From positions 38,722 through 102,721 of the forward strand of contig CAYUFU010000002.1 in the NCBI GenBank assembly GCA_964444145.1: 64,000 nt of DNA, in the 5' to 3' direction. This document shows positions 3,023 to 18,538 of the stretch, in pieces (within the stretch, counting starts at the first letter, position 1; each line of letters begins with the position of its first letter). Source of the DNA: an uncultured Chitinophagales bacterium (GTDB lineage Bacteria; Bacteroidota; Ignavibacteria; UBA10030; UBA6906). The notes beneath the pieces are model-generated. The model saw only the letters and a program-made list of their open reading frames with translations. It had not been told where the DNA came from and did not search any database. The translations under genes and the position numbers were made by a program.

Positions 3023-3328
3023 GGTACGGCTGATGCTATCAATCGTGCTCGTCGCGATGCTCGGCAGGCTGCATGTTCTCTGCGCCTGCAAGTTTGCCGA
3101 CAAGCATCTGTGGGTTGTGGATGAGTACGGGAAGATGTTGCGGGCAGATGGAAAAAGTGGCGTTCTGGTACGTCAATGTAATGAGGGGAATTTCTTCTTG
3201 CGTGCGTGCGCAGGCGATGCAGGATGAAGTCATTGGTGGATTGGACATGAAGAAATTCCTTTCGTGGTGAGAAGACGACGGTGAGGAGAGACACTATCAA
3301 CGAACACTCGTCATTGGCAATTCCTTAG

Positions 3329-3400
<72 letters not shown>

Positions 3401-3744
3401 AGCTATGTTGCGCACATCAGCAAATCACTCAGACGCCGAAAAAATATACGTACACCTTCTACGACATGCAAATACCGCCGCGAGGTACGAGGTTTGGCGT
3501 ACAACATGCCGCCTTCGGACGAACCACGTTGCCGAGTATTCCAACCCACGAAATGAACAAAGCGATTTGGGCGAACTGTGTCCTTGACAACGTATGTTAC
3601 TTTATTTACTATTAGGCGAGAGGATGGCTGGAGAAGAAAACGCTCTTATACTTCGTTCGTGAGCCATCTGTTCGGTGTCGTGCGTCCATGTGCGGAGCCG
3701 CTCGACTATGACAGGGCCATACATTCACAACAACGTTCATTGCA

Positions 3745-5334
3745 ATGATTCACTCCCTTCTCCCACCTCCCCGCAGTGCCGATTACCGCATCGCAGTGGT
3801 AATCGCTGTATTTACCATCTCATGTACCTTCTTTATTTTCTCTTGCGACGACATTGACCCGCTGCCCCCTGCAGTTTCGACGGCGACCGCTCGGCTGACG
3901 GTCGAAGAAGTGCAAGTTCTCATCGCGCACGCAGTCGAACAAGCGCAGCGCGTGAATCAAAAGGTGATTGTCGCAGTGTCCGATCGCGAGGGGAATATTC
4001 TCGGCGCCTTTCGTATGACCGGTGCGCGGTTGGATTCGAGTGATCTGAATTTCAACGGCGGCACCGTGAAAGTCACCACACTCGATACAACAATCCGCAA
4101 AGCGCGCACGGCAGCATTCCTGAGCAGTAACCAACATGCCTTCTCGACCGCAACGGCATGCTTCATTACGCGTTCACATTTTCCTCCGGGTATCTCGAAT
4201 ACGCCCGCAGGTCCGCTATTTGGAGTCGGACTGTCGAGCTTGCCGGGCAGTGACATTATGCCGAACGGCAACGCGCTGAGCGATTTGCCCGGCGGCGTCC
4301 CAATTTACAAAGGTGGCGTGCTCGCGGGGGGCATCGGCGTACATGGCGCAGCGTCGCAATTCAATTCCACCTTGTGTACGGGACAGAGTTTTGACGAAAC
4401 GATAGCGCTCGGCGCGTTGGGTGAGTTCGTTCTTCCGCCAAACGTGCGCGGCGATGGAATTTTTATAGACGGTATTCGCTTCTTATTCGCGAACGGAGCC
4501 GCGCCGGCGGGGAATTTCACGCTCACGTTCGCGAATCTCTCGTCGCTTGGAGCGGTCCTCATGCCGGTGCTTGGTGCGCCGATTCAGAAATTTCCTTCGG
4601 TGGCAGGTTACGTGAACCTCGATGCTACCCATGATTTCAATCCGCGTGCTGGGTCAATCCTCACGGTAGCAGATGTCGAGCGAATCATCAGTCAAGCCGC
4701 GGCGCAAGCGGCGAAAACGCGTGCAGCGATCCGCCGTCCCGTTGGTGTATCCGCCCAAGTGTTCATCTCCGTTGTTGACTTGAACGGTTCCGTGCTCGGC
4801 ATTTGGCGCACACCCGATGCAACGATTTTCAGCTACGACGTGAGTGCCCAGAAGGCGCGCACTGCACTCGCATTTAGCGATCCGAACAACACGAACTTTG
4901 GACGACGCATCCGTTCGATCCTTGGCATCGCGCCGACTGCTCCACTTTCAATGACCACGCGCGCAGTCGGTTTCCTTGCGCAAGATTTTTATCCGCCCGG
5001 TATTGACCGCGATTCGCTCGGTCAACCTATGGCACCGGGACCGTTGTTTGAAGGGGAGAATTTCAGATATCAATTCCGTTTGCTCGGCGAGGCGGGATTG
5101 CCCGCGTACGGCAACGGCATCACGATTTTTCCTGGGGGCATTGCACTGTACAAGAACGGCCAGCTTGCAGGTGCCATCGGCATCAGCGGCGATGGTGTTG
5201 ATCAGGATGATATTATCGCGGCGGCGGGAACGGCAGGCTTCGAGCCTCCTGCAAATGTTCGCTGCGATCAGTATTCATTTCGCGGCGTGCGCTTGCCGTA
5301 TGTCAAGTTTCCGCGGCAGCCGGAGATTCGATAA
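3745..5334 (+). CDS. Exported (lipo)protein with two tandem GlcG/HbpS-like (haem-degrading, PF03928/DUF336-like) domains
   Basis: N-terminal hydrophobic stretch with Cys (AVVIAVFTISCTFFIFSCDD). Domain 1: LTVEEVQVLIAHAVEQAQRVNQKVIVAVSDREGNILGAFRMTGA...IRKARTAAF...GGVLAGGIGVHG. Domain 2: LTVADVERIISQAAAQAAKTRAAIRRPVGVSAQVFISVVDLNGSVLGIWRT...AQKARTALAF...GQLAGAIGISGDGVDQDD. Both follow the GlcG pattern. Confidence 0.7.
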   Translation: MIHSLLPPPRSADYRIAVVIAVFTISCTFFIFSCDDIDPLPPAVSTATARLTVEEVQVLIAHAVEQAQRVNQKVIVAVSDREGNILGAFRMTGARLDSSDLNFNGGTVKVTTLDTTIRKARTAAFLSSNQHAFSTATACFITRSHFPPGISNTPAGPLFGVGLSSLPGSDIMPNGNALSDLPGGVPIYKGGVLAGGIGVHGAASQFNSTLCTGQSFDETIALGALGEFVLPPNVRGDGIFIDGIRFLFANGAAPAGNFTLTFANLSSLGAVLMPVLGAPIQKFPSVAGYVNLDATHDFNPRAGSILTVADVERIISQAAAQAAKTRAAIRRPVGVSAQVFISVVDLNGSVLGIWRTPDATIFSYDVSAQKARTALAFSDPNNTNFGRRIRSILGIAPTAPLSMTTRAVGFLAQDFYPPGIDRDSLGQPMAPGPLFEGENFRYQFRLLGEAGLPAYGNGITIFPGGIALYKNGQLAGAIGISGDGVDQDDIIAAAGTAGFEPPANVRCDQYSFRGVRLPYVKFPRQPEIR

Positions 5335-10200: not shown

Positions 10201-11004
10201 CCCCGAAATAATTTCTTGGAGCGTGCGCTCACGTTCAATCCCAATGGGATCTTGAATGGTGCAGTGAATCTTGCGGTTGCGGGGAATTACGTTTATGTTT
10301 GCTGCGACCGCGGCGTCGTCATCGTCAGCATCGCAGATCCGATGAAGCCACGCGTTGCCGCCGAGATTCCGGCGCCTGCAATCACGAAGCCGAAAGCGAT
10401 TGCCATTCAATTCCGCTACGCGTTCGTCGTTGATGACCAAGGTGTGAAGGTGATTGACTTGACGTGGATGGATCAGCCGAAGCTCGTGAAGAGCGCCGTG
10501 GTTCCGCTGCAAGATGCGAATGATGTTTACGTTGCGCGAACGTACGCGTACGTTGCAGCCGGCGCTCAAGGGCTGGCGATTATTGACGTTGAAAATCCAG
10601 AAGCGCCGAGGCTTGAAAAGTTGTTCACAGCGGACGGCGCTATCACTGATGCGCAAGGAGTGAAAGTCGCCTCGACCAACGCGAGCCTGTTCGCGTACGT
10701 TGCCGATGGGAAAAATGGTTTGCGTGTCATTCAGCTCACGTCGCCGAAAACGCCCGGCTATTTAGGCTTCAGTCCGAAGCCCGTGCCGCAATTGATCGCG
10801 ACGATGCCGATGCGCGGCAGAGCGCTTGCTGTCTCGAAAGGGATGGATCGCGACCGCGCGGTGGACGAAAGCGGCAATCAGGTCAGCGTGTTCGGCAGGC
10901 TCGGCTCGCGCCCGTTCACGCACGATGAAATGCGGCAGATGTATTTGAAAGAGGGAAAGTTGTGGACTGTGACGGATGATGGGAGTGTTTCTCTCAAGAA
11001 ATGA
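7291..11004 (+). CDS. Decahaem c-type cytochrome fused to a C-terminal LVIVD-repeat beta-propeller (1237 aa)
   Basis: Ten CXXCH motifs in the first ~770 aa: CITCH, CIDCH, CGPCH, CTGCH, CMSCH, CVDCH x2, CQACH, CFGCH, CTDCH. The C-terminal ~450 aa consist of LVIVD-type repeats (YLYAACGEDGFRVYDVANVDN, YAYITDRYEGLILVDVMNL, YVYVCCDRGVVIVSIADPMKP, YAFVVDDQGVKVIDLTWMDQP, YAYVAAGAQGLAIIDVENPEAP, FAYVADGKNGLRVIQLTSPKTP). The N-terminus MNSFLLRAIITCVIIECL is hydrophobic (signal/anchor). Confidence 0.85.
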   Translation: MNSFLLRAIITCVIIECLRDTMIGQDSFINQTQADADRKSKGCITCHGGIEPMHKSSAVKLGCIDCHGGNPNATIADLAHVQPRFPDRWKTSANPPRTYTLLNEEYPEFVQFVNPGDLRVADKACGPCHNTTSDPIVRNVQKSLMTTSALLWGGAAYNNGIVSTKNYILGESYSWDGKPQKINTVPVPSAEDMKNKGVLPFVVPLPRWEITQPPDNFRSFERGGKVPRINPSEIGIPNPFEEPGRPDNKLSDRGTGTQLRISSPVLNIHKTRLNDPHLSFMGTNDNPGDYRSSGCTGCHVVYANDRSNFNAGPYAVFGNRGQSKTADTTISKRESGHPIKHQFTRAIPSSQCMSCHMHQPNAFVNTYLGYQMWDYETDAELMYPKQQKYPSNAEAFAMLARNPEEAVLRGNWSDQEFLANVSSLNPQLAHSQFSDYHGHGWVFRAVFKRDRKGNLLDKDGKVIPDNAPFKFDGVVPIEGVTPKTMSAASQSAQKAVHLKDIHLEKGMHCVDCHFKQDAHGDGKLKGEFHNAVEIQCVDCHGTMSARATLKTSGVAAPAGGTDLTQTFTPFGERRFRKTATSIRQRSTLVDTLSWEILQTVDSHTSGAAGYNKKAEAAHLMLKDGTIGKPNSPEEMFAHSYKKMECQACHTSWITNCFGCHLPQQANWKKQMNHYEGELSRNWTTYNPQVLRDDAYMLCLTGTTKGSKITTARSSSALVLSSVNANREQIYIQQAPISSPGHSSQAFNPHFSHAVRATETKQCTDCHVSSKNDNNAWMAQLLLQGTNFVNFIGKYAYVAAGDGGLEAVQVTEQDEPQAVIGSYLHSIAYPDYYKAHLDNRKQLRTSYHHSGSALSVQLRGEYLYAACGEDGFRVYDVANVDNKGFSERIVTSPVSPFGQDTHVKTRFATAVALPTNMPIDTRRRYRPENQEQAVEYNGKQLNLHPSYSYAYITDRYEGLILVDVMNLVDGDPRNNFLERALTFNPNGILNGAVNLAVAGNYVYVCCDRGVVIVSIADPMKPRVAAEIPAPAITKPKAIAIQFRYAFVVDDQGVKVIDLTWMDQPKLVKSAVVPLQDANDVYVARTYAYVAAGAQGLAIIDVENPEAPRLEKLFTADGAITDAQGVKVASTNASLFAYVADGKNGLRVIQLTSPKTPGYLGFSPKPVPQLIATMPMRGRALAVSKGMDRDRAVDESGNQVSVFGRLGSRPFTHDEMRQMYLKEGKLWTVTDDGSVSLKK

Positions 11005-11048
11005 AAAGCAATATCGAATATCGAACAAGGAATGTTGAATAACGAAGT
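11005..11048 (+). repeat. Cassette terminal repeat, copy A (AAAGCAATATCGAATATCGAACAAGGAATGTTGAATAACGAAGTG), directly after the cytochrome stop codon
   Basis: Shares GCAATATCGAA...CAAGGAATG...CGAAGTG blocks with copy B (11112-11146, same orientation) and with the inverted copy C (11577-11620). Confidence 0.6.
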
Positions 11049-11111
11049 GAGAGCGCAACGGCTGTGCTTGTTAGTTCATGACCTCCTTATCCAAAGCTCT
11101 GTAAGGAGATG

Positions 11112-11146
11112 AAAAACAATATCGAATATTGAACAAGGAATGTCGG
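11112..11146 (+). repeat. Cassette repeat, copy B (AAAAACAATATCGAATATTGAACAAGGAATGTCGGA)
   Basis: Direct repeat of copy A, 107 bp downstream. Overlaps the TTG-initiated 5' end of ORF 11129..11566. Confidence 0.55.
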
Positions 11147-11155
11147 ATTTTTCAA

Positions 11156-11566
11156 ATGAGGACGGTGATGGATTCGAGACAGAAGCGACAGTTTGATCTC
11201 GAAGAGCGGCTCATTGATTTTTCCTGCATGATCATTGACATCGTCGAGGCGCTCCCCGATACGAAAGTAGGCAATCATGTAGCGGGACAGATTCTGCGGT
11301 CTGGAACTTCACCTGCGCCGAATTATGCCGAAGCGACGAGCGCGGAATCGCGACAGGACTTCATTCACAAGATGAAAGTTTCGCTCAAGGAGTTTCGTGA
11401 GACGAACGTGTGGCTCAAAGTCATAAAGCGAAGAGCCCTTATCAAGCCTTTGGAAAAAATGGAGATTGCGCTGACCGAATGCCGCGAACTCATTTCGATT
11501 TTCGTAACGAGCATCGCGACAGCGAAACGAAATCTGAGGACAATCCCGAGGGCAAGTTCCAAATGA
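11156..11566 (+). CDS. Four-helix-bundle protein (TIGR02436-like, the family encoded inside 23S rRNA intervening sequences)
   Basis: MRTVMDSRQKRQFDLEERLIDFSCMIIDIVEALPDTKVGNHVAGQILRSGTSPAPNYAEATSAES...KMKVSLKEFRETNVWLKVIKR matches the conserved layout of this family. A paralogue lies at 17150-17590. ORF-track start 11129 is TTG; ATG at 11156 preferred. Confidence 0.7.
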   Translation: MRTVMDSRQKRQFDLEERLIDFSCMIIDIVEALPDTKVGNHVAGQILRSGTSPAPNYAEATSAESRQDFIHKMKVSLKEFRETNVWLKVIKRRALIKPLEKMEIALTECRELISIFVTSIATAKRNLRTIPRASSK

Positions 11567-12588
11567 AGTTCACCGGCACTTCGATATTCAATATTCGTCA
11601 TTCCTTGTTCGATATTGCTCTTATCCTTTTTGCGTTGTGGGGCGATGCTTTTGCACAAGGAAAATACCAAACGCTTGGTCCTTCCGGCTGCGGCATCGGT
11701 CAGGACAAGTGCCACGCGACCGAAAACGGACAGATGATCAAGCAGCACAAGAACTCCGCAACAAGTATTGCCGATGGAGAAAATTCACAAAAGTACGCGG
11801 ACGCGCTCGGCGTGAAAGAGTTTCTCCAAAGCCCCCAGTGCATGAATTGCCATGGAACGATTATTTCCGGCAAAGAAGGGAAGGAAGTCGAAGAAGGGGT
11901 GAGTTGCGAGAGTTGTCATGGCGCGGGAAGCGGCTACAAAGATCCGCACTCCGAAGGCCCGAAAGGTAGTGAAGGACAGCCTCGTCCTGGCTACACAAAA
12001 AGCCTCGCGCTGGGACTTGCCGATTTGAAGAAGCCGGAAGAGATAGCAAAAGCATGCGTGCGTTGTCACTACACGACGGATCAAAGACTTATCAGCGCAG
12101 GCCATCCCGATGGTGCCAAGTTTGCCTACAAGTCGAAAATGAAGGATGTAGCGGAGCACTGGAGGTACCGCGACAAAAAGAATGTTCCCGAAGGAGCGGT
12201 ATTCAAAGCAGCGATGGATCGTCGGGCGCCGGGCGCGAAATTCTCTCAGACGCCCAAGCCGGTTGCCCAGCAGGCTCCTGCGCAGCCACCGGTAAAAAGT
12301 CCAGCGCCGACTCCCCAAAAGCCGACTCCGCAAAGTGTTGACGTCACTGCGCCGCCGTTGCAGAAGCAGAACATCGGCGATCAGCCCGCGCCAACGCCGC
12401 GCGTGCGTAAGCCACCACCACCGCCTACACCTGTTGCCGCCGATCGCGACGCTGATCCCCCGCCGACTCCGGCCGAACTGAAAGATCTGCCGCCGTTTCC
12501 GGCGATCACCGAGAGCACGCGCGTTGATCGCATGCTGTTGTTGCTGAAAAAAAGGTTGGAGCTACTCTACACGAAGACAAAAAACTGA
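11563..12588 (+). CDS. Small exported c-type cytochrome (3 canonical CXXCH plus one CX6CH-like site) with a Pro-rich C-terminal tail
   Basis: Signal peptide MKFTGTSIFNIRHSLFDIALILFALWGDAFAQG. Haem motifs CMNCH, CESCH, CVRCH, plus CGIGQDKCH. Tail PKPVAQQAPAQPPVKSPAPTPQKPTPQ...KPPPPPTP. ORF-track start 11410 overlaps the four-helix-bundle gene in another frame and is rejected. ATG 11563 yields the signal peptide. Confidence 0.75.
   Translation: MKFTGTSIFNIRHSLFDIALILFALWGDAFAQGKYQTLGPSGCGIGQDKCHATENGQMIKQHKNSATSIADGENSQKYADALGVKEFLQSPQCMNCHGTIISGKEGKEVEEGVSCESCHGAGSGYKDPHSEGPKGSEGQPRPGYTKSLALGLADLKKPEEIAKACVRCHYTTDQRLISAGHPDGAKFAYKSKMKDVAEHWRYRDKKNVPEGAVFKAAMDRRAPGAKFSQTPKPVAQQAPAQPPVKSPAPTPQKPTPQSVDVTAPPLQKQNIGDQPAPTPRVRKPPPPPTPVAADRDADPPPTPAELKDLPPFPAITESTRVDRMLLLLKKRLELLYTKTKN
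11577..11620 (-). repeat. Cassette terminal repeat, copy C (inverted relative to A/B); lies inside the signal-peptide coding region of the 11563 cytochrome
   Basis: Reverse complement GAGCAATATCGAACAAGGAATGACGAATATTGAATATCGAAGTG matches copy A at both ends. Confidence 0.6.
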
Positions 12589-12590
12589 GA

Positions 12591-12619
12591 ACCACGGATT
12601 ACACGGATTTACACCGATT
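12591..12619 (+). repeat. Left inverted repeat (ACCACGGATTACACGGATTTACACCGATT) of a second small cassette
   Basis: Imperfect inverse partner CAATCCGTGCAATTCCGTGAAATCCGTGGTT at 12786-12816. Confidence 0.5.
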
Positions 12620-12625
12620 AGGTTT

Positions 12626-12712
12626 ATGGAAGAAGAAAAGCAAGAGTCGAAATTGCTTTATGAGGATCTGACCTATCAAATCATTGGCGCGGCGATGGAG
12701 GTCTCCGAGTAG
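12626..12712 (+). pseudogene. Truncated GxxExxY-family gene fragment (28 codons then TAG)
   Basis: MEEEKQESKLLYEDLTYQIIGAAMEVSE* matches the conserved N-terminus (LTxKIIGAAIEVH) of GxxExxY proteins, another family typical of 23S rRNA IVS. No continuation in any frame. Confidence 0.5.
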
Positions 12713-12785
12713 GATTGCTTCTGAATTTCGGGACGCTCAGTCTTGAATACAAAAGAAGAATTCTGTAAAGAGAAATTCCTAAAAA

Positions 12786-12816
12786 CAATCCGTGCAATTC
12801 CGTGAAATCCGTGGTT
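12786..12816 (-). repeat. Right inverted repeat of the GxxExxY-remnant cassette
   Basis: See 12591-12619. Confidence 0.5.
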
Positions 12817-12831
12817 AAATAATTCGTGATT

Positions 12832-14460
12832 ATGTCACTCGGTCAAACACAACTCAAACGTCTCGAACAGTATAAGGATCGTTGGACGTCATTCGGCGCA
12901 ACGACGGGCATCATCGAGCTGTCCGAAAAACCGACGCCTGAAGTCTTGAAACGCTTCGAGATCTTCAAAAGCTACGACGACAAATTCCTCGAGAAGATTT
13001 CGCCTGACGTTTCGGTTGCGCGATGGAAAGCAGGAACGGTGCTGTTCGAAGAGGGAAGTTATCTTGATCTTGCGTTCTTCGTTTTCTCGGGGACGGTGGA
13101 TGTGTATTTGGAAAAAACGCGAGGCACGCCATCACCTATTTTCGACCGTGGTAAAACACGAGTGATTACGGCTCCTCTTGAAGGCGGCACGCGCCCGACA
13201 TCGCCGCAGCGAACGATGTTCATGACGCAAGTCGGCAAGCAAGAACGCGCGACAGGGCAAATCACCTTTCTCGCTGCGATGGATTTCAATTTGCCGGCGG
13301 CAGCAACGATGCGGTTGGGCACAGGAGAGATGTTTGGTGAAATCGGCGCGCTGAGCGGCTGGCCCCAATCCGTCACCGCCAAAACTGCGAGCGAGTGCGT
13401 GCTCGTGCAAATCCGCACGGCGGCACTGCGACTCATGCGCAAACGCTCGAGTGCCCTCAAGCAGCGTCTCGACGCATTATACAAAGAACGCTCGCTGATC
13501 GCGCAGTTGCAGGCGACCCCGCTCTTTCGGGCTGCAAGCGAGTCGTTCATTCGCGCCGTTGCAGAAAAAGTTGACCTTGTCTCCTGCGAGCCGGACGATG
13601 TGCTGACGCGTGAGGGCGAACCGTGCGACGCGCTCTATTTGGTGCGCAGCGGTTTCATAAAACTCTCCCAGAAAGTGGGAGAGGGTGAGATTGTCGTCTC
13701 GTACCTTTCGAAAGGAAGTACACTCGGCGATGCGGAATTGTTGCTCGAGGGAAATCCTGGCTGGCTCTTCACGGCATCGTCGAAAGAGTATTCGGAGCTT
13801 GTCAAAATCCCGCGCACAGAATTCCAGAATCTCATGACGCAAAGCCCCGGTGCTGAGCGCATGTTGTGGGAATCCGTTGTTGCGCGTGTCAAGGAATCGG
13901 GCTTCAATCGGAAGAACATCGGGCAAGCGGAGTTTCTTTCCACCGCAATCAACAAAGGCTTGGTGGAAGGCAACAGCATGCTCGTCATTGATCTCAATGT
14001 TTGCACGCGTTGCGATGACTGTGTGCGCGGCTGTTCGGATACACACGGCGGCATACCGCGTTTCGTGCGCGAAGGGGACAAGGTTGGTAACTTTCTCGTT
14101 ACGCGTTCGTGCTACCATTGTCAAGACCCCGTCTGCTTGGTTGGCTGCCCGACGGGAGCAATACGGCGGACGGACGTCGGCGACGTTGTTGCCATCGAGG
14201 ATAACCTTTGCATCGGGTGCGCGTCATGCGCCAACAATTGTCCCTACGACGCGATCGTGATGCACAACGTCGGCGGCATGTGGCCCAGCGACATGATCCC
14301 CGAAGGGTTGCGCGGAAAAGAGAAAACACTCGCGACAAAATGCGATTTATGCTACAAGGACCCGGCGGGTCCCGCCTGCGTGCGCAGTTGTCCGCACGGC
14401 TGTGCAGTGCGTGTCGGCGACGTGCAGGAATTTCAATCGCTGCTCTGGAAGGAAGTGTGA
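12832..14460 (+). CDS. Two cyclic-nucleotide-binding (cNMP) domains fused to an NrfC/PsrB/HybA-like ferredoxin with four [4Fe-4S] clusters
   Basis: cNMP domain 1: GTVLFEEGSYLDLAFFVFSGTVDVY...GEMFGEIGALSGWPQSVTAKTASECVLVQI. cNMP domain 2: DDVLTREGEPCDALYLVRSGFIKL...LGDAELLLEGNPGWLFTASS. Four Cys clusters: CTRCDDCVRGC, CYHCQDPVCLVGCP, CIGCASCANNCP, CDLCYKDPAGPACVRSCP. No Tat or signal peptide, so predicted cytoplasmic. ORF-track start 12826 is GTG; ATG at 12832. Confidence 0.8.
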   Translation: MSLGQTQLKRLEQYKDRWTSFGATTGIIELSEKPTPEVLKRFEIFKSYDDKFLEKISPDVSVARWKAGTVLFEEGSYLDLAFFVFSGTVDVYLEKTRGTPSPIFDRGKTRVITAPLEGGTRPTSPQRTMFMTQVGKQERATGQITFLAAMDFNLPAAATMRLGTGEMFGEIGALSGWPQSVTAKTASECVLVQIRTAALRLMRKRSSALKQRLDALYKERSLIAQLQATPLFRAASESFIRAVAEKVDLVSCEPDDVLTREGEPCDALYLVRSGFIKLSQKVGEGEIVVSYLSKGSTLGDAELLLEGNPGWLFTASSKEYSELVKIPRTEFQNLMTQSPGAERMLWESVVARVKESGFNRKNIGQAEFLSTAINKGLVEGNSMLVIDLNVCTRCDDCVRGCSDTHGGIPRFVREGDKVGNFLVTRSCYHCQDPVCLVGCPTGAIRRTDVGDVVAIEDNLCIGCASCANNCPYDAIVMHNVGGMWPSDMIPEGLRGKEKTLATKCDLCYKDPAGPACVRSCPHGCAVRVGDVQEFQSLLWKEV

Positions 14461-15299
14461 TGCCAAAGTCACTACTCAGATCAATCCCTCTGGACAAGCT
14501 CGTCCGCTCTCCCGATTGGGCGGCGGGATTGCTTATCGCAAGCCTCGTGCTCGGCGCAATGTACGCACTGAACGCGTACCTTGACGAAATCAATCCGGGT
14601 AACTGGTGGGGCTTGACGTACGGCTGGCTTTCGGCGCTGCTCATGCTTGGCGCGGGTTTGTATGGCGTGCGACGAAGAATGTTAAACCGCAACATTGGCA
14701 ACTCAAAAGTCTGGGTACAGTTTCATATTTACGGGGGCTTGCTCGCGGGTTTGCTTTTCTTGTTTCATACCGGCTTTCGTTTTCCGAGCGGTCTGTTCAA
14801 TTGGCTGCTCTGGCTGCTCTCGGTTTGGGTGACGGTCAGCGGCGTCATCGGCGTCGTGTTGCAGCGATGGATTCCGCGCATTCTTGCGTCGGGACTTTCG
14901 ACCGAAGCGGTGTACGAGCGCATTCCTGAACTCATCGGGCACGTACGCGAGCGAGCCGAGAAACTTGCGAGTTCCTGTACGATGCCTGTGCAGGATTTTT
15001 ACCGCGCGACGCTCGCAGCGGAGTTCGCCATGCCGCGTCCGCGCCTCATTTATTATTTCGACGTGACCGGGGGGATTCAGTCGTGTATCAGACGCTTCGA
15101 GTTTCTTCGCCGCGTCCTCTCGGTCGAGGAGAAAGAAAAGCTCGATAGCTTACAAGACATGTATCGAACGAAATTGGAATTGGATGCACATTACTCGCTG
15201 CAGACTGCATTGCGGTGGTGGCTCTTCTCGCACGTGCCGCTCTCGCTTGTACTGCTGCTGATGATCGCACTGCATGTTTGGGCAGTGTGGTATTACTAA
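14460..15299 (+). CDS. Integral membrane protein (5 predicted TM helices, His-rich), candidate b-type cytochrome-like membrane anchor
   Basis: Start ATG overlaps the upstream TGA (gtgATGcc), i.e. translational coupling. Helices AAGLLIASLVLGAMYALNAYL, WWGLTYGWLSALLMLGAGLYGV, VWVQFHIYGGLLAGLLFLFHTGF, LFNWLLWLLSVWVTVSGVIGVVL, WWLFSHVPLSLVLLLMIALHVWAVWYY. His residues sit inside helices 3 and 5. Haem ligation is inference only. Confidence 0.65.
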   Translation: MPKSLLRSIPLDKLVRSPDWAAGLLIASLVLGAMYALNAYLDEINPGNWWGLTYGWLSALLMLGAGLYGVRRRMLNRNIGNSKVWVQFHIYGGLLAGLLFLFHTGFRFPSGLFNWLLWLLSVWVTVSGVIGVVLQRWIPRILASGLSTEAVYERIPELIGHVRERAEKLASSCTMPVQDFYRATLAAEFAMPRPRLIYYFDVTGGIQSCIRRFEFLRRVLSVEEKEKLDSLQDMYRTKLELDAHYSLQTALRWWLFSHVPLSLVLLLMIALHVWAVWYY

Positions 15300-15411
15300 C
15301 GTGGATTGATGGATTGATGGATTAATGGATTGATGGATTAATGGATTGATGACCAGGACCAAACCCTTCGATCCATTGATCCAACAATCCAACAATCCAA
15401 TAAGCCAGGAA
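15300..15411. repeat. Tandem GGATTGAT/GGATTAAT octamers (x6) followed by an inverse-type arm (ATCCATTGATCCAACAATCCAACAATCCAATAA); gene-less copy of the element at 17043-17635
   Basis: Directly visible: GTGGATTGATGGATTGATGGATTAATGGATTGATGGATTAATGGATTGATG ... CCAACAATCCAACAATCCAATAA. Confidence 0.7.
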
Positions 15412-15434
15412 TACTCCTAAGCTCTCAGAGGGTC

Positions 15435-17051
15435 ATGCCAAACTCAAAAGACGAAAACAGAACCAAAGGCACCTTCAGCGACGTGCGCATGCCCGTCGCG
15501 AGAACATACATTAGACCGCTCTCGCGCAAGCTGATGATGACTCTCGGCGGCATTGTTTGTGGAGTCGTTGTTGCCTACTATGCCGTTGACTCCCTGCTGT
15601 TGAAGAATACATTCATTGCGAGCGGTCCGGTGGCGGCGAGCCACGCCAACTTCGAGAGCGAATGCGCGAAGTGCCATACGCCGTTCCGCGGCGTGAACGA
15701 TAGCAGGTGCACGACCTGTCATGAGAAGACGAACGACAAGTTGGGGGTATATTCCTTCGCCGCGCATTACCTGTACCGATCGGCAATGCCTGCGCGTATT
15801 GCCGATGCAAAGCAGAAACACGGCGCAGATGAGAAAATGTGCGCTGCTTGTCACCCCGATCATAAGGGACGCAACGCAAGCATCACCGTCGTGACAGATG
15901 CGAAATGCGCCACGTGCCACTACTCCTCGTTCAATGACGATCATCCTGAGTTTGAGTTTGCACGCACGAATGCCGTGGACGATTCGACCTTGAAGATGAC
16001 CCATGTAAAGCACACAAAAGAAGTATTGAAGGAACTTAATACGGCGAACATCGAAACCGCCTGTCTCTATTGCCACAATCCGATGGCGGATGGGAAAGCC
16101 TTCAAGCCGCTCGACTTCGACATGCACTGCGGCGATTGCCACCTCACGGCGAATACGGCATCCGCGTCGCTGACGATTCGCGACCCAAGCAATCCCAGTG
16201 CTCTCGGCGTCGAGACGTTGGAGATGATTCAACAACGAAGAGGTCCCGGCACGCGTTGGGCATTCTATACGAACCCAAACGAATTTACTATTACCGGCTC
16301 GCGCGTACAGAAAGCTCCCGTCTATCATCGCGATCCGTGGATTCTTGAAAACCTCAAAAGGATTCGCTCGATGCTCTACACGGAGGTCGGCCTCTCGGAT
16401 TTGTTGAATGCCGCAGGTGCCGGAGCGGAGAAGGGCAATCAGCAGTCGTATAACGAGGCGATTCAAACGCTCCGCGAGTATGTCACCGGCTTGCGCCCTC
16501 GTCCAGAAAAAGAAATTCAACAGGAGCTTACGACGATTGATTCCTTGTTGGATGTTGCGTCGCGCGTTGTGAATACGCCGGCAGTGACGCTCTCTGATTC
16601 GCTCTTTCGCATAACGGTGCGCATGGAAAACCCAAGCCTCACGGCGCAACAGAAGCAGGATATTTCGGATTTCGGCGAGAAGCTCGCGAAGCCGTGCCTC
16701 GAGTGTCATTACGTTGAGCGTGCGGCGATTCTTGGCGTGAAGGCGATCCAGCGAACGTTTTCGCGTGCCGAGTTCGATCATCGCGCGCATATTACGCAGC
16801 GCCGCTGCCTCGAATGCCATGACGTAATACCGATTGACGATGCGCTGTCGGACGATTCACTCGCAGTTACACGAGCCGCCGCGAAGATTCCGACGCTTGA
16901 TATCGCAGCGACACACAATATTCCGAAAAAAGAAAACTGCATCGAGTGTCATACAGCAGGCGCAGGGTCGAATGAATGCATCACATGCCACTTCATGCAT
17001 CCGAACAAAACGCAGCGCGGGAGTTTACAACTATTCGTTTCTAAGCCCTGA
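15435..17051 (+). CDS. Membrane-anchored decahaem c-type cytochrome
   Basis: N-terminal TM helix MMTLGGIVCGVVVAYYAV. Ten CXXCH motifs: CAKCH, CTTCH, CAACH, CATCH, CLYCH, CGDCH, CLECH x2, CIECH, CITCH. Confidence 0.85.
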   Translation: MPNSKDENRTKGTFSDVRMPVARTYIRPLSRKLMMTLGGIVCGVVVAYYAVDSLLLKNTFIASGPVAASHANFESECAKCHTPFRGVNDSRCTTCHEKTNDKLGVYSFAAHYLYRSAMPARIADAKQKHGADEKMCAACHPDHKGRNASITVVTDAKCATCHYSSFNDDHPEFEFARTNAVDDSTLKMTHVKHTKEVLKELNTANIETACLYCHNPMADGKAFKPLDFDMHCGDCHLTANTASASLTIRDPSNPSALGVETLEMIQQRRGPGTRWAFYTNPNEFTITGSRVQKAPVYHRDPWILENLKRIRSMLYTEVGLSDLLNAAGAGAEKGNQQSYNEAIQTLREYVTGLRPRPEKEIQQELTTIDSLLDVASRVVNTPAVTLSDSLFRITVRMENPSLTAQQKQDISDFGEKLAKPCLECHYVERAAILGVKAIQRTFSRAEFDHRAHITQRRCLECHDVIPIDDALSDDSLAVTRAAAKIPTLDIAATHNIPKKENCIECHTAGAGSNECITCHFMHPNKTQRGSLQLFVSKP

Positions 17052-17130
17052 GCGGAGCGAAGGGCATTGGCTGCTTGGTGGATTGGTGGATTGATGGATT
17101 GATGGATTGATGGATTGCGGATGCGCGGGT
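17043..17130 (+). repeat. Left arm of the GGATTGAT element: AAGCCCTGAGCGGAGCGAAGGGCAT module plus (GGATTGGT/GGATTGAT)x5; starts inside the last codons of the cytochrome gene
   Basis: The same 5' module TAAGCCCTGATCGGAGCGAAGGGTAT recurs at 55409. Confidence 0.65.
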
Positions 17131-17149
17131 CAACTATTGAGGAGAAGTT

Positions 17150-17590
17150 ATGGAATACACAAAACTCAGAAACAAGAATCGCGGCTACATGAAGTTGGAT
17201 GTGTGGCAAAAGGGAATCGTGCTGTTCCAGCTCGTTTGGAATCTCATCACGAAAGCAAAAGTAGATTTTAAGCTGCGGTCACAAATCGCCAATGCTGCTC
17301 AAGGGATTTCATCCAACATCGCGGAAGGCTATAGCAGACGCTCGGTAAAGGAGTATCTTCAATTCTTGTATGTTTCTCTCGGCTGTCTTTCTGAAACGCT
17401 CACGAGGTCTGTGGGGCTAAAAGTGATAAACCAAATCTCTGAAGACGAGTTCAATCAGATTGACGTTTTGCATTATGAAATTGAAAACAAACTGTGGCGA
17501 TTGGTCGAAAGTTTAGGGCGGAAGAAAGACGATGGCACGTGGAGCGATCGCGTCTCAGAGGATTTATCGGAATACCCAACAATCCAATAA
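17150..17590 (+). CDS. Four-helix-bundle protein (TIGR02436-like), second copy
   Basis: MKLDVWQKGIVLFQLVWNLITKAKVDFKLRSQIANAAQGISSNIAEGYSRRSVKEYLQFLYVSLGCLSE carries the family signatures LDVWQK, NIAEGY and EYLxFLxxSxGSLxE. Alternative start at M14 (17189). The C-terminal codons overlap the right repeat arm. Confidence 0.75.
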   Translation: MEYTKLRNKNRGYMKLDVWQKGIVLFQLVWNLITKAKVDFKLRSQIANAAQGISSNIAEGYSRRSVKEYLQFLYVSLGCLSETLTRSVGLKVINQISEDEFNQIDVLHYEIENKLWRLVESLGRKKDDGTWSDRVSEDLSEYPTIQ

Positions 17591-17625
17591 TCCATTTATC
17601 CATGAATCCATTGATTCATTATTCC
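17575..17625. repeat. Right (inverse-type) arm of the GGATTGAT element (CCAACAATCCAATAATCCATTTATCCATGAATCCATTGATTCA)
   Basis: Complement-type CAATCC units mirror the GGATTG units of the left arm. Confidence 0.6.
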
Positions 17626-17635
17626 TCCTAGTGTT

Positions 17636-18538
17636 ATGAAAGCGCGTCTCTTTTGTAAAACAGGCCAGCTCGCCGGCGCGAGCTTCGAGATTGGGACGGA
17701 CGCGATGATCGGCAAGAGTGCCGAATGCGTGATTCAACTCTACCCGCAGTTGATCTCGTCGCGCCATGCGCGCATTTATTTTGACGAAAAAGCGCAGAGC
17801 TATTTTCTCGAAGACCTCAATAGCCGTAATGGAACGAAATTAGACGGCACTCGTGTCAAAACAAAGGAGCGGCTCGGCTCGCTGCACGTGATTACGCTCG
17901 CGAACACGTTCGATTTTCTTTTCCAAGTGATTGACGAGAGCCAACAGATCGCAGCGCCGAAGGGTGAGCCTGCAAAACCAGCGACGCTCAAAACAGAGTT
18001 GGGGAGCGGCTACGTGCCACAGCAAACGCCGCCCCCCGCAATGCAGCAGGTTGCACCGAAAACCGTAATGAGCGACGAGCCATTGGCGAACGCTCCGCTC
18101 GCGTCTCACTCGCGGGAGAAAACGATTTTCGAGAACGATGCAATTCCCGTCTTTCGACAACCGAAGGAACAGGAGAAACGAGCCGACGCGAAGATTCCAG
18201 AAGAGAGTATCCCCACCCCCATGCCTCGTCCGCAGACGCCCGCAGCAAAACCTATCACCTTTGCAGTGGTAGTGGACTCGACGGGAAAATCCTACGAACT
18301 CAACGAAGGCTCGACCATTGTCGGCAGAGACGCATCGTGCGGCATCTGCATCGAACATGGCTCGGTCTCGCGCAAGCACGCGGAGTTGCTGCTCAAAGGC
18401 GGCAAGTTGACCGTCAAAGATTTGGGGAGCAAGAATCATACATTCATCAACGATCAGAAAATCAAAGTTGAGACGGAAATCCACGAGGGCGTAACGCTGA
18501 CCTTTGGCGTGGTGAGGGCGCGGGTGGTTAAGGCCTGA
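17636..18538 (+). CDS. Protein with two FHA domains separated by a Pro/Ala-rich linker
   Basis: FHA 1: IGKSAECVIQL...SSRHARIYFDEKAQSYFLEDLNSRNGTKLDG. FHA 2: TIVGRDASCGICIEHGSVSRKHAELLLKGGKLTVKDLGSKNHTFINDQKI. Both carry the G-R...S-R/H...N-G-T/hydrophobic signature. Confidence 0.8.
   Translation: MKARLFCKTGQLAGASFEIGTDAMIGKSAECVIQLYPQLISSRHARIYFDEKAQSYFLEDLNSRNGTKLDGTRVKTKERLGSLHVITLANTFDFLFQVIDESQQIAAPKGEPAKPATLKTELGSGYVPQQTPPPAMQQVAPKTVMSDEPLANAPLASHSREKTIFENDAIPVFRQPKEQEKRADAKIPEESIPTPMPRPQTPAAKPITFAVVVDSTGKSYELNEGSTIVGRDASCGICIEHGSVSRKHAELLLKGGKLTVKDLGSKNHTFINDQKIKVETEIHEGVTLTFGVVRARVVKA

Follow-up and report, generated by a model that had tools for sequence, protein, structure and literature searches.

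An operon of multihaem cytochromes on the plus strand of the window (the whole 64-kb stretch of DNA analysed) contains, between two of its protein-coding genes, a gap of about 237 bases in which a 28-codon ORF lies between inverted repeats. The locus raises the question of what this segment derives from, how it came to lie between two co-transcribed genes, and whether any part of it still acts. It is answered below from the structure of the segment, the identity of the disrupted gene, the state of the same gap in related operons, and a survey of the gene family.

Structure of the remnant

The gap was found to contain both inverted-repeat ends of an element together with the first 26 and the last 21 codons of a GxxExxY gene. 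The features of the region are listed below, where the parent is the gene reconstructed from sister contigs.

11563..12588, plus strand: upstream host gene, multihaem cytochrome with a Cytochrome_C554 domain (Pfam match, sequence, orthologues)
12590..12626, unstranded: left terminal inverted-repeat arm, beginning AACC, with three tandem units and matching the family-wide left-arm consensus
12593-12600, 12602-12609, 12612-12619: left-arm units CACGGATT, CACGGATT and CACCGATT
12626..12703, plus strand: GxxExxY codons 1-26, 100% identity to parent residues 1-26
12703..12704, unstranded: deletion junction (alignments A1, columns 165-413, and A7), microhomology of at most 1 nt
12703..12768, plus strand: GxxExxY codons 110-130 (RLRVGLLLNFGTLSLEYKRRIL) and TAA stop, in a frame that differs from that of the N-terminal piece
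12780..12816, unstranded: right terminal inverted-repeat arm, with three units and a final TT
12787-12794, 12796-12804, 12806-12814: right-arm units AATCCGTG, degenerate AATTCCGTG and AATCCGTGG
12832..14460, plus strand: downstream host gene, cyclic-nucleotide-binding / 4Fe-4S protein, with its ATG at 12832

The cytochrome stop codon (TGA, 12586-12588) is followed by a single base and then by the left arm. A sequence-only reading of the window had described inverted repeats at 12591-12619 and 12786-12816; the repeats are real, but their measured ends are 12590-12626 and 12780-12816. The arms are 37 nt each, 81% complementary and 153 nt apart, and each carries three CACGGATT-type units of about 8-10 nt. 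The middle unit of the right arm differs from that of the sister contigs by one substitution (A to T). The number of CACGGATT matches in the whole window is not significant on its own, as 19 of 100 shuffles reach the observed five, whereas their clustering is significant, four of the five lying within the 225 bases of the remnant. When the RNA of 12575-12835 was folded, the arms formed the closing stem in both the minimum-free-energy and the centroid structures (-76.6 kcal/mol, z = -4.5), and none of 200 shuffles folded as well. An Rfam scan of 10900-17800 (E <= 1) returned nothing relevant, rRNA families included, and neither a plus-strand promoter-like site nor a terminator was found in 10900-13000.

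The 28-codon ORF lies at 12626-12712 on the plus strand exactly as first described, with the translation MEEEKQESKLLYEDLTYQIIGAAMEVSE and a stop. Its AGG and ATG overlap the inner part of the left arm, and it crosses the deletion junction to reach a TAG at 12710-12712, which arose, relative to the sister contigs, by a G-to-A change beside the junction. Codons 110-130 with their stop were overlooked in that reading; they lie in another frame, which ends in RVGLLLNFGTLSLEYKRRIL and a stop (12703-12765, stop 12766-12768) and corresponds to the C-terminus of the same GxxExxY gene. For annotation, the 28-codon ORF is best treated as a piece of a pseudogene.

Identity of the disrupted gene

Searched alone, the 28-aa peptide is too short to match any HMM. 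The C-terminal piece matched positions 97-115 of TIGR04256 (E = 0.0028), and the two pieces joined scored 18 bits on TIGR04256 and 14.8 bits on PF13366, both below the curated cut-offs (35 and 22 bits, respectively). A search with the joined pieces recovered P0001 and P0002, proteins of 66 aa that agree with the window ORF in all of their first 26 residues; P0001 passes TIGR04256 with 73.7 bits. The parent gene was reconstructed from the sister contigs (L001) with its lesions repaired, and it encodes a full-length family member of 130 aa that scores 151.5 bits on TIGR04256. HMM support for the family assignment proposed in the sequence-only reading was thus obtained from the C-terminal piece and the parent. 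By tblastn against the window, parent residues 1-26 aligned with 12626-12703 and residues 110-130 with 12703-12765, both at 100% identity; no other GxxExxY copy was found in the 64-kb window, and the arm repeats likewise have no second copy there.

Judged by these alignments, the remnant descends from a member of the GxxExxY family (TIGR04256 / PF13366 PDDEXK_3) and is itself a pseudogene fragment. It had been called a truncated GxxExxY gene remnant, and codons 1-26 are indeed identical; the lesion, however, is an internal deletion that kept both ends of the gene, not an N-terminal truncation, and it removed the motif that gives the family its name. That motif (G33-x-x-E36-x-x-Y39 of the parent) lies inside the window's deletion and is retained in L001-L005 and L132. 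The PD-(D/E)XK core (D76 and D86-x-K88 of the parent), of which D76 and K88 are invariant in alignment A2, is also gone from the window. With neither the motif nor the catalytic residues left, the window copy encodes no functional protein.

PDDEXK_3 proteins have been described as a family of unknown function with multiple transfers (PMC3424549). No match to the PADLOC defence models was obtained for the parent or for the two four-helix-bundle proteins encoded nearby, and a sequence-profile search of the PDB gave no match. The structure model was mediocre (pLDDT 68), and Foldseek returned weak matches only (E > 0.26), to restriction enzymes and Cas4; the model is too weak to place the GxxExxY protein within its superfamily.

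Sister alleles and the order of decay

P0001 and P0002 are encoded on five contigs, L001-L005, which share the gene order of the window, with flank identities of 99% for L004 and L005 and 87-95% for L001. In these contigs and in L132 the cassette is longer than that of the window by 249 nt (alignments A1 and A7), and the segment missing from the window corresponds to parent codons 27-109, the middle of the GxxExxY protein. The sister genes are not intact. In L001-L005 the gene is split by a 1-nt deletion into ORFs of 66 and 80 aa, and L132 is free of the frameshift of L004 but has two other 1-nt deletions (alignment A7). The GxxExxY gene is dying in this population, by 1-nt deletions that differ between alleles.

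The deletion in the window is a multiple of three, yet the pieces that remain are out of frame with each other, so the deleted segment must already have carried a frameshift; the gene thus became a pseudogene first and suffered the deletion second. The decay that had been proposed is borne out by the 249 nt lost relative to sister strains whose own gene is frameshifted, and the interior of the window copy was lost recently, from a gene that was dead by then.

Related lesions were found in other metagenomes. In P0003, N- and C-termini have been fused independently and in frame. In L130, a relative with 87% identity to the window in the cNMP/Fe-S protein, positions 3268-3501 hold a GxxExxY remnant in which the left arm has shrunk to AACCAC, the N-terminal stretch is diverged and two right-arm units are left. 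The possibility that its deletion is the same as the window's was considered and rejected, as L130 retains sequence past the window's breakpoint. Both cassettes of L130, GxxExxY and four-helix-bundle, are independent internal-deletion remnants.

Occupancy of the gap in orthologous operons

The state of the gap was compared in more distant orthologous operons from other metagenomes, as follows.

L117: gap empty, with the upstream stop overlapping the downstream ATG (cTGATGg)
L088: also an empty site, 80-nt spacer, repeats absent
L090 and L091: also empty sites, adjacent genes, 13-34 nt between matches
L130: differently eroded GxxExxY remnant in the gap
L086 and L087: a different element, with an IS200-like Y1_Tnp gene between GTAGGGGCGGAC...GTCCGCCC hairpins

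The element of L086 (2335-3000, and also in L087) is of the REP/RAYT type, with a Y1_Tnp match of 25.5 bits, and its operon is 71-77% identical to that of the window. By comparison with these operons, the remnant is an insertion between the cytochrome stop and the start of the next gene, although the empty sites in relatives could be losses instead of the ancestral state. Hairpin-flanked elements of different kinds seem to land in this gap. A single orthologous gap thus offers a dated snapshot, with alleles that differ in their frameshifts, a 249-nt internal deletion, a copy eroded independently, a competing element and sites that are empty, and together these states show how hairpin-flanked cassettes enter operons and then decay to bare stems.

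Terminal repeats across the GxxExxY family

More than 7,900 relatives of the parent were found at E < 1e-10, the closest intact ones being 70-76% identical and including proteins of KSB1 bacteria and Methanophagales archaea. The surroundings of the genes were surveyed at 80 genome loci spread over many phyla of bacteria and archaea, among them Bacteroidota, Planctomycetota, Acidobacteriota, Chloroflexota, Nitrospirota, Verrucomicrobiota and several lineages of archaea. Intact members include P0010 and those of the cultured species Marinilabilia salmonicolor (L050/L055), Geofilum rubicundum (L033) and Natronoflexus pectinivorans (L022). Most of the 80 loci have inverted repeats around the gene (z > 8 against shuffled controls), and the borders are formed in most of them by CACGGATT/CACAGATT-type arrays, so that the repeats of the window do recur elsewhere. 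The hexamer CAGATT was present upstream at 41 of the 80 loci and AATCTG downstream at 45, against about 0.3 per kb in distal flanks. A first, loose regular expression for the units was dropped as too permissive (6 per kb); with the strict definition, 186 unit clusters were counted in 446 kb against 0-1 in shuffled sequence, and only about half of the 80 loci fit the strict canonical pattern.

The consensus of the repeat ends is A(T/A)CCACAGATT-nCACAGATT-nCACAGATT, and alignment of the left arms gave A(T/A)CC(A/G)C(A/G)GATT - n - C(A/G)C(A/G)GATT - n - CACAGAT(T/G) with a sharp outer boundary. Across the family the units are of the form C-R-C-R-GATT, are spaced 9-11 nt apart, and have A-W-CC at the outer end. 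Of the units, the outermost agrees best between the two arms. Arm-to-arm identity was 32/66 in the units and 14/44 in the spacers, and the spacers, of 1-3 nt, are mostly unpaired.

No target-site duplication was found in 41 cassettes, except for a palindromic AT that belongs to the repeat, and none is present in the window, where the flanks read ..CTGAG|AACC and GGTT|AAATA; the mechanism of movement is therefore left unconstrained. The upstream gene was co-oriented with the GxxExxY gene at 49 of 51 loci (binomial P about 6e-13, from crude ORF calls). Signature sequences of 23S and 16S rRNA (sarcin-ricin loop, peptidyl-transferase and 16S) were searched for at the 80 loci and were not found; these loci thus lend no support to the statement in the sequence-only reading that GxxExxY proteins are classically encoded in 23S IVS elements. 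In IMG/VR this GxxExxY subfamily is virtually absent from viral contigs, the search having returned one weak partial match.

Adjacent forward and reverse arms formed 60 pairs. The main mode, with 360-520 nt between arms, corresponds to an intact gene, and 17 of the 60 pairs have 18-263 nt between arms and no meaningful ORF; the window, at 165 nt, falls in the latter class.

The remnant alone is ordinary, and the interesting part is the architecture that it revealed, with terminal repeats, iterated and conserved in sequence, that border PDDEXK_3 genes in many bacterial and archaeal phyla. No description of this repeat architecture of GxxExxY genes was found in the literature searched, which was limited, and an earlier description elsewhere is possible.

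Several loci of the survey deserve separate mention. An intact GxxExxY gene (P0113, L120-L129) lies between wzm (ABC2_membrane) and wzt (ABC_tran/Wzt_C) of a polysaccharide export operon, another within-operon insertion. Its context was identical at each of the 10 places listed from the 24 contigs read; although the protein occurs on many contigs, it was found in this one genomic context only, with no sign of recent transposition. In two planctomycete loci (L040:1453-2394 and L047:2887-3840), homologous ORFs of 286-289 aa with only a weak, below-cut-off match to HEPN_AbiU2 (E = 0.008) lie inside CACAGATT-type arms, and these arms can thus bound other cargo. In L030, arm clusters were located at 312-415, 1301-1405, 1929-2033 and 3804-3899, and L033:2301-3069 is similar; reverse and forward clusters alternate about 50 nt apart, so that consecutive cassettes lie in arrays.

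Origin and present role of the remnant

The segment is what is left, in place, of an inserted cassette of about 0.47 kb. Probably, it has become neutral debris, and such cassettes are promoter-less selfish elements whose protein recognises their arms. The original cassette consisted of a three-unit arm, a 130-codon GxxExxY/PDDEXK_3 gene and an inverted three-unit arm, and would have had no promoter of its own, relying on read-through of host transcripts. Conserved units with free spacers, at intervals of 9-11 nt, make the units putative sites at which the encoded PD-(D/E)XK protein recognises or binds the element while it is inserted or copied. In RNA, pairing of the arms would give a stem of about 35 bp with interruptions, which could plausibly be cut by RNase III, by analogy with the 23S intervening sequence of Coxiella, and in the window this stem would at most offer a place for processing or stabilisation between the two cistrons. 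The remnant is most likely without function, contributing at most an RNA stem to the operon transcript, and is most likely now on its way to a bare hairpin, as neutral debris; a residual effect of the stem on processing of the operon mRNA is possible but unlikely.

A stronger role for the stem is conceivable if the arms were kept after the death of the gene as an exapted cis-acting RNA, for example an RNase III site, or a stabiliser by which the cNMP/Fe-S cistron is uncoupled from that of the cytochrome. In favour of this, no shuffle matches the strong fold of the stem, three alleles that differ otherwise agree in both arms, the deletion removed the interior alone, and short ORF-less arm pairs persist in many genomes. 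The identity of the arms carries little weight, however, in alleles that are 99% alike, and the sole change in the arms of the window weakens a pair. Moreover, L130 lost nearly the whole left arm and kept the operon, and the orthologues with empty sites manage without the stem, so exaptation is considered unlikely. Retention of both terminal arms, including the outermost and best conserved unit, and the frequency of ORF-less arm pairs elsewhere would also be expected of a MITE-like non-autonomous element that arrived, or can still move, with the help in trans of intact GxxExxY paralogues at other places in the genome. That reading is judged very improbable, since the remnant occupies exactly the same site as the longer sister versions, and must then have arisen by deletion in place, and since no second copy of the repeats or of the gene is present in the 64-kb window.

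Least credible of all, to the point of being nearly discounted, is a real small gene in the 28-codon ORF, encoding a leader peptide or a regulatory peptide that serves the downstream gene and resembling GxxExxY proteins by accident. It could draw on an ATG with AGG four bases upstream and on a position just before the next gene, but a bona fide member of the family begins with the same 26 residues, the last two codons and the stop were created by the deletion junction and the G-to-A change, the reading frames of the sister alleles are quite different, and the ORF is absent from orthologous operons.

Decay in place of an inserted cassette is thus the preferred reading, and a broader proposal may be attached to it tentatively. 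GxxExxY cassettes may possibly be widespread, tiny, promoter-less mobile elements of bacteria and archaea, in which a PD-(D/E)XK protein of about 125 aa recognises iterated 8-nt CACAGATT units, three per end; the elements would insert just downstream of host genes without target duplication and would become harmless by folding out of the host transcript, a design in common with ORF-bearing rRNA intervening sequences, and the remnant and the ORF-less arm pairs would be its MITE-like debris. If it is true that the protein acts on the units, this would provide a testable mechanism for the spread of elements of the intervening-sequence (IVS) type and would account for intergenic hairpins of a kind that is common in environmental genomes.

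Comparison with known elements

The design of the cassette is closest to that of ORF-bearing rRNA intervening sequences, but outside 23S rRNA. [quoted passage not shown] Like the cassette, the IVSs of Coxiella burnetii and Leptospira place a small ORF of a widespread 'hypothetical' family inside terminal inverted repeats that form a stem of about 30 bp (PMC4990558). Tandem repeats in the 5' arm precede the ORF in both, with an ACAGAT core common to the three GACAGAT copies of Coxiella and the CACAGATT units, and in both the ORF decays by deletions while the RNA stem persists; IVSs are regarded as selfish and of unknown origin (PMC4990558). They differ from the cassette in their location, which is helix 25 or 45 of 23S rRNA instead of the space between protein-coding genes of an operon, and in the protein, the Coxiella ORF encoding a four-helix-bundle protein (S23p) and not a PD-(D/E)XK protein. 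Excision by RNase III has been demonstrated for the IVS, whereas for the cassette it is suggested by analogy.

Two further groups of elements share parts of this design. MITEs resemble the remnant in keeping their termini and losing the coding interior, and in forming a size series from the full element to a bare hairpin in related genomes, but the remnant has no target-site duplication and no DDE transposase, and it arose in place. REP/RAYT systems (REPtrons) also combine a small nuclease-type gene with inverted hairpin repeats, many gene-less repeats and a location in intergenic gaps, but they have an HUH/Y1 transposase and single palindromes in place of the PD-(D/E)XK fold and the arrays of three 8-nt units.

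Neighbouring four-helix-bundle cassettes

Two cassettes with four-helix-bundle ORFs lie near the remnant.

11004..11620, plus strand: neighbouring cassette, with an intact four-helix-bundle ORF (11168-11566) and inverted arrays of AATATCGAA../CAAGGAATG units
17051..17635, plus strand: third cassette, with a four-helix-bundle ORF (17150-17590) and inverted arrays of about five 8-nt GATGGATT units

The ORF at 17150-17590 matched TIGR02436 with 68 bits. The fold of 17051-17635 was no better than that of shuffles (z = -0.18), although the arms still pair in the minimum-free-energy and centroid structures. The remnant had been regarded as a decayed sibling of these cassettes, and the kinship was found to extend to the architecture only, the repeat units and the proteins being unrelated; arm repeats common to the GxxExxY and four-helix-bundle cassettes were considered and rejected, as the latter use other units (AATATCGAA.. 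and GATGGATT).

The four-helix-bundle cassette of the gap preceding that of the remnant is intact in the window, in L001-L003 and in L086/L087, is internally deleted in L130, where positions 2098-2252 retain the C-terminus of the four-helix-bundle protein and its arms, and is absent from L117, L088, L090 and L091. In the window its left arm is duplicated (about 11006-11040 and 11112-11146). The four-helix-bundle stop codon (TGA, 11564-11566) overlaps an ATG (11563-11565) of the cytochrome gene, and the cytochrome residues that follow this ATG (MKFTGTSIFNIRHSLFDI...) are encoded by the right arm of the cassette (11580-11620). In L117 and L088, orthologues with empty sites, the signal peptide of the cytochrome is different and shorter. 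In view of these residues and of the difference in the signal peptide, insertion of the four-helix-bundle cassette may have remodelled the 5' end or the start codon of the cytochrome gene.

The four-helix-bundle protein of the window (11168-11563) is 82% identical to that of L086 (906-1301) and 71% identical to that of L001 (582-935). The surrounding genes rank in the opposite order, with L001 a close relative and L086 a distant operon, and this reversal of rank suggests replacement of the cassette, or recombination, at the four-helix-bundle site.
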